Made by a program: the position numbers and the translations under genes. From IMG/VR virus record IMGVR_UViG_2645727991_000009: 7,574 nt of DNA, one strand, 5' to 3'. This document shows, piece after piece, positions 3,763-4,388 of the stretch. The DNA comes from a virus. Lineage: Duplodnaviria > Heunggongvirae > Uroviricota > Caudoviricetes. Numbering within the stretch: position 1 is the first letter of the stretch; every line of letters starts with the position of its first letter. The notes under the pieces were generated by a model. That model saw nothing but the letters and a program-made list of their open reading frames with translations, searched no databases and was not told the origin of the DNA.

Positions 3763-4118
3763 GCGACCTTATTATTCATGCGCGGTATTGTCGCCGTATT
3801 CCTGCATTAACAGAGACCGCAGCCCGACCGGGAGAATCCTCTGCGCGAGTGTGCGGGGATAATCAAAAACGATACACACCGGGGTTTACCGCGTTAACGG
3901 AGCGCGGCGTTGTCCCCTCATGGTCGCTGGTCCGGTGCGATGGTGGAAGAAGCCGGATGTTTATCACTATTAATTGATAACACAGAAATGGATTCATTGA
4001 TTTTCAGCACGTTTTTGTATTCGTATTATTGAACATCTGTTTATTTTACTTTTAACATATTGATAATAAAAAGAGCTGTAAATCTTTAGATGAGTCGATT
4101 TTGTCCGGGGAAGTTCAA

Positions 4119-4259
4119 ATGGATTTTATGCTGACGGTTTCTGGTGTGGTTATCCTGTCCATTGCTTATACTGCAGATAAATATGGCTGCCATTTGTTAT
4201 CACGTATTGGCGCTTATTGCTCGTTGATGCTGATTTTCTCGTCGCTTTTTTTTGAGTAA
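4119..4259 (+). CDS. Possible small hydrophobic peptide (46 aa) inside the AT-rich island; speculative
   Basis: ATG at 4119 preceded by GGGGAAG about 6 nt upstream, TAA at 4257-4259. The product MDFMLTVSGVVILSIAYTADKYGCHLLSRIGAYCSLMLIFSSLFFE is hydrophobic. A weak sigma70-like promoter is possible upstream (TTGAAC 4029-4034, 18-nt spacer, TAACAT 4053-4058). The AT-rich context makes a chance ORF plausible. Confidence 0.25.
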   Translation: MDFMLTVSGVVILSIAYTADKYGCHLLSRIGAYCSLMLIFSSLFFE

Positions 4260-4297
4260 GTTATATTAATTATAACAAATAATTTTCTGTGTTTTTT

Positions 4298-4325
4298 CAG
4301 GCTATCCCGTCAGACGGGAAGCCTG
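4298..4325. other. Strong inverted repeat / hairpin (about 13 bp stem with a 1-nt bulge)
   Basis: CAGGCT-A-TCCCGTC-A-GACGGGA-AGCCTG. On the + strand the T-run comes before the stem, not after, so it is not a canonical intrinsic terminator on either strand. Confidence 0.4.
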
Positions 4326-4388
4326 TACTGCCGGGGGACGAATGGAAAACTGATGTGTCCGGTAACTGTGTGTTCTGTGAACACCATG

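Follow-up and report, generated by a model that had tools for sequence, protein, structure and literature searches.

The moron concept for lambdoid phages is said to go back to Juhala and Hendrix in 2000, and the described morons closest to the locus treated here are those lying between Rz and cos (the cohesive end site), namely bor of lambda and borD/ybcV of DLP12. RNase III hairpins are known from polycistronic phage mRNAs, examples being T7 R1.1 with its relatives and lambda sib. In prophages Sp9, Sp10 and Sp12 of Escherichia coli O157:H7 Sakai the slot between lysis and packaging genes encodes HnrS, a 66 nucleotide Hfq-dependent small RNA (sRNA) with an intrinsic terminator, which represses translation of hha and received its present name in a 2026 paper (PMC13502914). 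Here we describe the corresponding slot in a 7,574 nucleotide stretch of DNA from a virus of the Caudoviricetes (IMG/VR record IMGVR_UViG_2645727991_000009), referred to as the window. An earlier note, made from the sequence alone, had flagged positions 3763-4388 as one AT-rich island between the lysis and the packaging genes. The flagged interval is instead a composite of a conserved module, named element A (3780-3956), and an independent AT-rich cassette (3959 to about 4420).

The window corresponds to the late region of a lambdoid prophage (Sakai Sp6 type) of E. coli O157:H7; many O157:H7 genomes contain prophage DNA that is 100% identical to it, and its identity to phage PPyecE_EH1910 is 99.6%. 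The strongly AT-rich core is borne out by the G+C content, which in 200 nucleotide segments is 0.33-0.40 over 3901-4400 against 0.48-0.61 on either side. The description as an island applies to about 3959-4388, but not to 3763-3958, which is GC-rich (about 0.53-0.60) and forms a separate conserved element. This left third, overlooked in the earlier note, is widely conserved and RNA-like and constitutes the most unusual content of the interval. On balance we consider it probable that the interval is a moron slot with two features, element A, which is likely a structured RNA, and an AT-rich moron with a gene for a small membrane protein.

Element A is a 177 nucleotide conserved module on the strand of the late operon (3780-3956, plus strand) and a candidate structured RNA, as indicated by BLAST, covariation and its sharp ends. 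It was first seen in an alignment with two related phages, where the stretch following a 74 amino acid open reading frame (ORF) was near-invariant and the adjacent coding DNA had diverged; identity between the window and Stx2_EH2201 is 95% in element A, 82% in the 74 amino acid ORF and 81% in ynfO. A BLAST search of 5426 complete E. coli genomes with 3763-3960 yielded matches in 4143 of them. The matches occupy 10,804 places, with a maximum of 11 in one genome, and almost all are unannotated; in 3095 genomes a match spanned at least 80% of the query. Matching phage records numbered 398, and a motif scan of viral contigs gave 120 further loci. Model R1 detects the element in 68 of 68 loci, DLP12 included, all 68 having been fetched by the element's own sequence through BLAST or core-motif matches. 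In separate searches it was found in lambda and in Sakai prophages Sp6, Sp9, Sp10 and Sp12, and it is also present in Sp3. On the Sakai record NC_002695.2 the copies are at 903,301-903,477 (Sp3), 1,560,773-1,560,949 (Sp6), about 1,779,459-1,779,635 (Sp9) and 1,946,757-1,946,933 (Sp10).

In all annotated contexts inspected (434, 21, Stx2 II, the borD-ybcV spacer of DLP12 in K-12, two other prophages and the iss remnant of a ColV plasmid) element A lies on the late-operon strand, directly after Rz/Rz1 or, if bor is present, after bor. The lambda copy is found at 46,869-47,031 between bor and lambdap78, and in bor-carrying phages the distance from the element to bor, upstream of which it lies, is 116-180 nucleotides. 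The ends are sharp, running from GCGCNGTAT... to ...GGAAGAANCNGG in 139 copies; among these copies 37 combinations of flanks occur, drawn from 11 left and 15 right flanks that are unrelated to one another. A core-motif scan of species-representative genomes (GTDB) gave true matches in Escherichia only, the rest being chance matches in AT-rich DNA or likely contaminant contigs. Complete copies also occur on short contigs labelled Candidatus Nanosynbacter, Pseudomonas yangonensis and Thiomicrorhabdus, most likely through contamination of these assemblies with lambda or E. coli DNA. The iss (bor-like) region of ColV-type plasmids, as in the plasmid of strain D5, keeps fragments of Rz/Rz1 together with element A's 5' domain, which explains the 691 plasmid matches and identifies the iss locus as a lambdoid fragment.

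The predicted fold, on the plus strand, has six helices and one pseudoknot. Its 5' domain (3785-3875) comprises P1 (3785-3791 with 3869-3875), P2 (3797-3806 with 3852-3861), P3 (3818-3822 with 3841-3845) and P4 (3823-3825 with 3830-3832). P5 is a variable hairpin (CCGCG/CGCGG, 3889-3893 with 3903-3907) whose arms are replaced between types, and the 3' domain (3923-3956) contains P6 (3923-3927 with 3937-3941) and a pseudoknot of H-type geometry, in which the loop at 3932-3936 would pair with 3952-3956. In the 5' domain 97.5-99.4% of the alignment cells of each helix are paired, the pairs being kept on the plus strand by many switches between G-U and A-U or G-C, and this domain survives even in the ColV-plasmid iss remnant. 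The arms of P5 read CUGUG/CGCAG in 434 and lambda-like copies and UCUCAU/AUGGGA in those of the Stx2 II type, with three pairs changed on both sides. Three pairs are likewise changed on both sides in P6 (G-U/C-G, U-A/C-G/U-G and C-G/A-U), and one pseudoknot pair varies between G-C (29 copies), U-A (14) and G-U (9).

In a MAFFT alignment of 34 representatives 97.1% of the cells are paired, against 32-64% when the partners are slid, and the covariation score is 0.167, compared to 0.116 in shuffles (none out of 500 reached the observed value) and at most 0.076 when slid. A model-fitted alignment of 56 distinct copies has 98.0% of cells paired when read as the plus strand, compared to 89.7% as the minus strand, and ten pairs show two-sided changes, mostly in P5, P6 and the pseudoknot. 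The plus strand was assigned because of the wobble pattern, G-U cells (196) being far more frequent than A.C cells (16); the RNAalifold values were -23.7 (plus strand) and -9.95 (minus strand). As far as sequence variation can tell, the substitution pattern fits a folded RNA of the plus strand.

A number of observations speak against element A as a functional RNA. The copy in the window is thermodynamically no more stable than its shuffles (z = -0.08), alternative pairings exist in the 3' half of the element, and in the phage 21-type copy P6 and the 3' domain are deleted. There are only about 6-8 independent sequence types, the fold was derived from the very sequences on which it was tested and one of the alignments was fitted to the fold, all of which inflates the support from covariation. 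Between Rz and their right ends, HK97 and HK022 contain no sequence resembling element A. The element has also been largely removed in one phage: Mondal et al. (2016; PMC5155283) constructed an in-frame deletion of ORF57 of Sp5 (ECs1218), and in the Stx2 II locus, where element A occupies 1485-1662, the published primer arms of this delta-ORF57 mutant match 1478-1496 and 1644-1661, so the deletion takes away element positions 13-159. The mutant is not listed among the nine plaque-negative, the two reduced or the three enhanced mutants, and no change in plaque formation or lysogenisation was reported for it, in a text naming just the mutants with clearly altered plaque or lysogen counts (PMC5155283). 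In K-12 element A is thus not required for induction, plaque formation or lysogenisation, and we regard it as non-essential because HK97 and HK022 do without it, phage 21 does without P6 and no defect was reported for the Sp5 deletion mutant.

Element A is, given its pattern of substitutions, most likely a structured RNA within the late transcript that starts at pR', and its role is probably an accessory one, acting in cis in that transcript. According to the mechanism proposed, Escherichia lambdoid phages keep the element downstream of Rz/Rz1 (and of bor) while the flanking DNA is exchanged, and in the rightward transcript it would fold into the long irregular hairpin P1-P4, the variable hairpin P5 and the small pseudoknotted hairpin P6. 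Our best guess, made by analogy, is that it may serve as a cis-acting processing, stability or boundary element placed where the lysis cassette ends, for example as a site of RNase III type. Possible conditional roles include processing or stability of the late mRNA, insulation between the moron slot and the lysis genes, and interaction with a host factor. We propose tentatively, as a possibility short of probable, that element A is an undescribed class of structured phage RNA, present in most Escherichia lambdoid prophages, with a conditional role that plaque assays miss.

A serious rival is that element A is a recombination anchor acting at the DNA level; more broadly, it could be conserved as DNA only, whether as such an anchor, as a recently spread linker at module boundaries or as part of the promoter of bor or of other morons. 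The mosaic junctions which coincide exactly with both ends of the element agree with this, as do its unremarkable folding energy, the deletion of the Sp5 copy without reported phenotype, its absence from HK97 and HK022 and its position upstream of bor where bor is carried. The excess of G-U over A.C cells and the ten compensatory pairs show, however, a strong bias towards keeping plus-strand pairs, and this bias counts against a role as DNA only, which does not predict it. Phages that have lost bor, the window included, nevertheless retain element A, and inspection by eye gave no convincing match to a PhoP box or to the bor promoter within it. We therefore judge conservation as DNA only to be rather unlikely.

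Returning to element A as a candidate RNA, comparison with described RNAs gave little. Rfam 15 produced one chance snoRNA match for the whole window at E≤1, located elsewhere, and two sub-threshold chance matches for the 221 bases 3760-3980 at E≤10; a literature search using sequence words of the element gave no match. GGA loops of the CsrA type are not conserved between its variants, and its end has no U-run, so that an intrinsic terminator is absent at this point. The 3' arm of P2 (GCGGGGAUAA) and its partner UUCCCGC resemble what we take to be the hairpin of the type I-E clustered regularly interspaced short palindromic repeat (CRISPR) of E. coli, and 3852-3865 (GCGGGGAUAAUC) with its partner at 3797-3806 (UAUUCCUGCA) presumably resembles the hairpin plus 3' handle of the repeat GAGUUCCCCGCGCCAGCGGGGAUAAACCG. 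The Rfam CRISPR-DR models gave no match to the P2 region of element A.

The second component of the interval, the AT-rich cassette (3959 to about 4420), extends into the last codons of ynfO. Phage 569R3 lacks this cassette of about 460 bp, and its gene of ynfO type comes immediately after element A. In Stx2_EH2201 and other Stx2 phages it is replaced by other AT-rich DNA; homology to Stx2_EH2201 resumes near 4420 within the 3' end of ynfO, and as the cassette junction lies inside this gene the C-terminus of its product differs between phages. The cassette was detected in 734 of the 5426 genomes, among them O157:H7, O55:H7, O104:H4, O145 and others, at 95-100% identity, and one diverged allele of 80.6% identity is carried by strain SHP24. 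Comparison of the slot across related prophages, as suggested in the earlier note, thus found the AT-rich segment present, absent or replaced, and the small ORF described below kept in the diverged allele. The cassette is an insertion between genes that are adjacent in relatives, and its base composition is unlike that of its flanks, both being traits of morons.

The proposed equivalence with the bor/moron slot of lambdoid phages is upheld by the position of bor between Rz and element A in lambda, 434, 21, DLP12 and Stx2 II, although in the window no ORF for a Bor-like lipoprotein is found in 3515-4388. The reading of the interval as a moron slot is supported, and the cassette would have arrived by recombination as a moron. 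In some phages the end of element A lies only about 50 nucleotides from a lambda-type cos region (...GCGGGTCCTTTCCGG...) and the moron slot is empty; such an empty slot with element A beside cos may be the ancestral arrangement. A perfect 10 nucleotide inverted repeat at 3979-3988 and 4284-4293 (AACACAGAAA / TTTCTGTGTT) encloses a promoter-like site and the small ORF. A miniature inverted-repeat transposable element or other transposon was considered as the origin of the cassette and rejected, the repeat being near chance expectation and not kept in the SHP24 allele.

The small ORF encodes 46 amino acids (4119-4259, plus strand; WP_000347013.1). As the earlier note had proposed, it has a plausible Shine-Dalgarno sequence, GGGGAAG (4107-4113), 5 nucleotides before the ATG. 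The late region of Sakai Sp6 has the identical gene arrangement, and there the ORF is ECs_1538; RefSeq records annotated with the Prokaryotic Genome Annotation Pipeline show this ORF as the only feature of the interval, and phage record LC567835 shows none. The product is hydrophobic, with a grand average of hydropathy of 1.11, and has hydrophobic segments at residues 3-19 and 30-45 separated by the conserved loop ADKYG..LLSR. No family was matched in Pfam, PHROG, NCBIfam or PADLOC, and homologues were found in E. coli only, all of them in copies of this cassette. In the SHP24 allele the ORF is open, with 45 amino acids and conservative changes. The 46 amino acid ORF is probably a real gene and its product, on the predicted hydrophobicity, probably a small membrane protein of helical-hairpin type.

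A promoter-like sequence, TTTTCA-17-TATTAT (4001-4029, plus strand), which scores 9 out of 12 in a consensus scan, is located upstream of the ORF; its -10 hexamer is GATAAT in SHP24, which is still -10-like. The weak promoter-like element of the earlier note is thus present, but such sites are no more frequent in the interval than in shuffles. A leftward site, TTTACA-17-TATGTT (4054-4082, minus strand), found in the same scan, lies in a stretch that is invariant between the two alleles and is not followed by a terminator. The 46 amino acid gene would be expressed from the cassette's own sigma-70-like prophage promoter, with a contribution from late read-through transcription, and its protein could have an effect at the membrane, be it in exclusion, in the timing of lysis or in host physiology. 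A hairpin is located between the small ORF and ynfO's 3' end (4298-4325); its stem has 12 pairs with a single bulged A, where the earlier note described 13 bp. In a context of 56 nucleotides its folding energy is -23.1 kcal/mol, with z-scores of -2.65 (plus strand) and -3.26 (minus strand). The bases that follow it are UACUGCC on the plus and AAAAAAC on the minus strand, neither of them a U-tract. In O104:H4 the hairpin is weakened, and SHP24 has lost it; for lack of a U-tract and of conservation it is not called a terminator.

The account of the cassette as a moron with an expressed membrane-protein gene has several points to its disadvantage. Three promoter-like sites were found in the interval and 2.5 are expected in shuffles, and no canonical intrinsic terminator is present for the cassette on either strand. 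The ratio of non-synonymous to synonymous substitution rates (dN/dS) of the small ORF is about 0.28, a value obtained from the 25 differences (12 synonymous, 13 non-synonymous) of a single allele pair. The two alleles are identical over 4040-4075, a stretch that would fall in the 5' untranslated region (UTR); as this stretch is untranslated and surpasses the ORF in conservation, selection could be acting on an RNA or a regulatory site. Finally, none of the 63 reported Hfq-CRAC (cross-linking and analysis of cDNA) peaks of Sakai falls in the Sp6 copy of the cassette, in an assay which detects Hfq-bound RNA only.

An sRNA as the selected product, with the 46 amino acid ORF incidental, has its precedent in HnrS, which occupies the same slot in the sibling cassette. 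The Hfq-CRAC peaks EcOnc10 (Sp12), EcOnc11 (Sp10) and EcOnc12 (Sp9) of Tree et al. (2014, Table S2; PMC4104026) were placed on the current Sakai genome with AgvB as the calibration point, the genome versions being shifted by about +140 bp; near 1.94 Mb the 2014 coordinates are about 137-146 bp below those of NC_002695.2. The corrected peaks fall within the AT-rich spacer that separates element A from the ynfO-like gene, and their strand is opposite to that of the late genes. In the Sp10 locus element A is at 3758-3934, the ynfO-like gene at 4109-4336 and the HnrS region in between, with the same flanks as in the window. EcOnc11 had been considered as an RNA from within element A, minus strand; that position is an artefact of the version shift, and the peak is HnrS beside the element. 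Other candidates set aside are EcOnc13/32 (Sp3), EcOnc05/08/21 (Sp4) and EcOnc33 (Sp6), which are upstream of the holin gene and thus in a different slot, and the sRNAs AgvB, AsxR, Esr41, STnc100 and Pas, which are near pR' upstream of the lysis genes, none of them matching the window. STnc100 (Rfam) adjoins AgvB upstream of the esterase gene in Sp10 and has a second copy in Sp12, in agreement with a recent preprint on Pas sRNAs.

The presence of HnrS in Sp9, Sp10 and Sp12 makes the slot a proven site for small regulatory cargo, but the cargo of the window is different. The suggestion of an sRNA in the slot therefore holds for these three prophages and not in the same form for the window, which has no HnrS-like sequence (blastn-short with the Sp10 HnrS region gave chance matches of 9-11 nucleotides only), no Rfam match and no intrinsic terminator on either strand. 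The invariance of 4040-4075 between alleles that are about 80% identical, above the conservation of the ORF, and the promoter-like sites on both strands would suit an sRNA; the lack of Hfq-CRAC peaks in the Sp6 copy and an ORF that stays open with a low dN/dS argue against it. We rate an sRNA as the selected product of the cassette as possible but unlikely.

The earlier note also proposed a type I toxin, that is a membrane-damaging peptide restrained by an antisense RNA. This too is possible, and we find it slightly less likely still than an sRNA. The product is under 60 amino acids and has two hydrophobic segments, the predicted 5' UTR is long (about 82 nucleotides) and highly conserved, and the leftward promoter-like site adjoins the predicted mRNA start. 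However, the product matches neither Hok, Ldr, Ibs, TisB, Sho or Zor nor any other family, and no convergent antisense unit is found: no promoter-like site on the minus strand yields a predicted RNA over the ORF or its ribosome-binding site, the sole such site (4082-4054) points away from the ORF and gives a predicted overlap of about 10 nucleotides with the mRNA, no terminator bounds any antisense unit, and there are no tandem copies.

That the whole interval is decaying spacer DNA without function is very improbable; annotation is sparse and the hairpin is unconserved, but element A exceeds its flanking genes in conservation, copies of the cassette in 733 genomes of many serotypes show 95-100% identity, and the ORF has been maintained, for which reason the decayed gene suggested earlier is unlikely as well. 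Least likely of all, to the point of being nearly negligible, is a protein encoded by the left third, where an 84 amino acid ORF (3723-3977, plus strand), the counterpart of Sp5 ORF57/ECs1218 (77 amino acids), contradicts the claim that the interval holds no ORF of 60 or more amino acids: the plus-strand frame is open in 33 of 75 distinct variants of element A and some records annotate ORFs across it, but in 37 of the 75 all six frames are interrupted by stops, indels of 8-17 nucleotides occur between variants, the variation has no 3 nucleotide (third-position) periodicity, the 84 amino acid ORF has no Pfam match, and the ORFs over the element have start codons and N-termini unrelated between phages. 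Judged by this variation element A is non-coding. The annotated 77 amino acid ORF57 or ORF C87 (1488-1721 of the Stx2 II locus; ECs1218 in Sp5) begins within element A and continues through it, and several phage records have similar calls of hypothetical proteins over the element; ORF57 is probably a spurious ORF.

The genes surrounding the interval were taken from our own ORF list, which is concordant with the annotation of the matching records. The left end of the window is the end portion of a sialate esterase gene, followed by the holin (905-1120), YdfR (1125-1469), endolysin (1520-2053) and antirepressor (2324-2893) genes, a 48 amino acid ORF, Rz with the embedded Rz1 (3047-3514) and the 74 amino acid ORF (3538-3762, plus strand), which is of the Sakai ECs_1536 type according to RefSeq and Sakai annotation and matches PHROG 2571, a family without assigned function. 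The antirepressor gene, encoding an N-terminal antirepressor domain, and the 48 amino acid ORF lie within the lysis cassette in the gap between endolysin and Rz, an odd location for an antirepressor. In the prophage copy of PV15-279 the endolysin gene is interrupted by IS1203, whereas it is intact in the window. On the right the interval is flanked by the YlcI/YnfO gene (4389-4574, minus strand; Pfam DUF3950, 8.7e-20; NCBIfam YlcI_YnfO_N), and then come an HNH endonuclease gene (4616-4981) and the genes of both terminase subunits, the small TerS and the large TerL. The HNH protein shows a weak, sub-threshold similarity to the HNH region of IscB (NCBIfam, 7.7e-7, 28.5 bits against a cutoff of 175). 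The HNH gene directly precedes TerS and TerL as in HK97, and so cos is probably located in the 290 bp gap at 4982-5270. A cos site within the flagged interval was rejected; in lambda-type phages cosQ is located near the right end, and in the window cos is expected between HNH and TerS.

The AT-rich cassette is in itself one more, ordinary moron and is of value chiefly as an example. It indicates that the slot between lysis and packaging genes in prophages of enterohaemorrhagic E. coli is a swap site for small regulators and proteins, of which HnrS is the characterised case, and about 13% of complete E. coli genomes, with O157:H7, O104:H4 and O145 among them, have ECs_1538. Element A is the more useful result, being present in lambda and in most complete E. 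coli genomes, where it is unannotated or mis-annotated as small ORFs. If it is truly a folded RNA, it would be a new non-coding part of the best-studied phage family, and it can serve as a fixed landmark for finding moron slots in prophage annotation.

Comparison with known systems places the two components differently. The 46 amino acid product is similar to Hok, Ldr, Ibs, TisB, ShoB and Zor in size, hydrophobicity and prophage origin, but it has two hydrophobic segments, not one, and neither a family match nor an identifiable antisense partner. The 5' domain of element A resembles the RNase III hairpins in being long and irregular, with 7 and 10 bp helices and an asymmetric conserved internal loop, and in lying between functional blocks of a long phage transcript; the analogy is one of shape only, as there is no sequence relationship and element A adds P5 and the pseudoknotted P6. 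The HnrS cassettes (EcOnc10/11/12) share with the window the neighbours, namely element A, the ynfO-like gene, HNH and terminase, as well as the AT-richness and the length of a few hundred bases, but there is no sequence similarity: HnrS is on the opposite strand with its intrinsic terminator abutting element A, while the window has a small ORF on the plus strand and no terminator. With respect to the morons between Rz and cos (lambda bor, DLP12 borD/ybcV), the window has no bor/iss homologue and no recognisable terminator, its cargo being an orphan hydrophobic protein of 46 amino acids on the late-operon strand; like them, the cassette occupies the slot after Rz/Rz1, deviates in composition, is present or absent between otherwise collinear phages and carries a promoter-like site.

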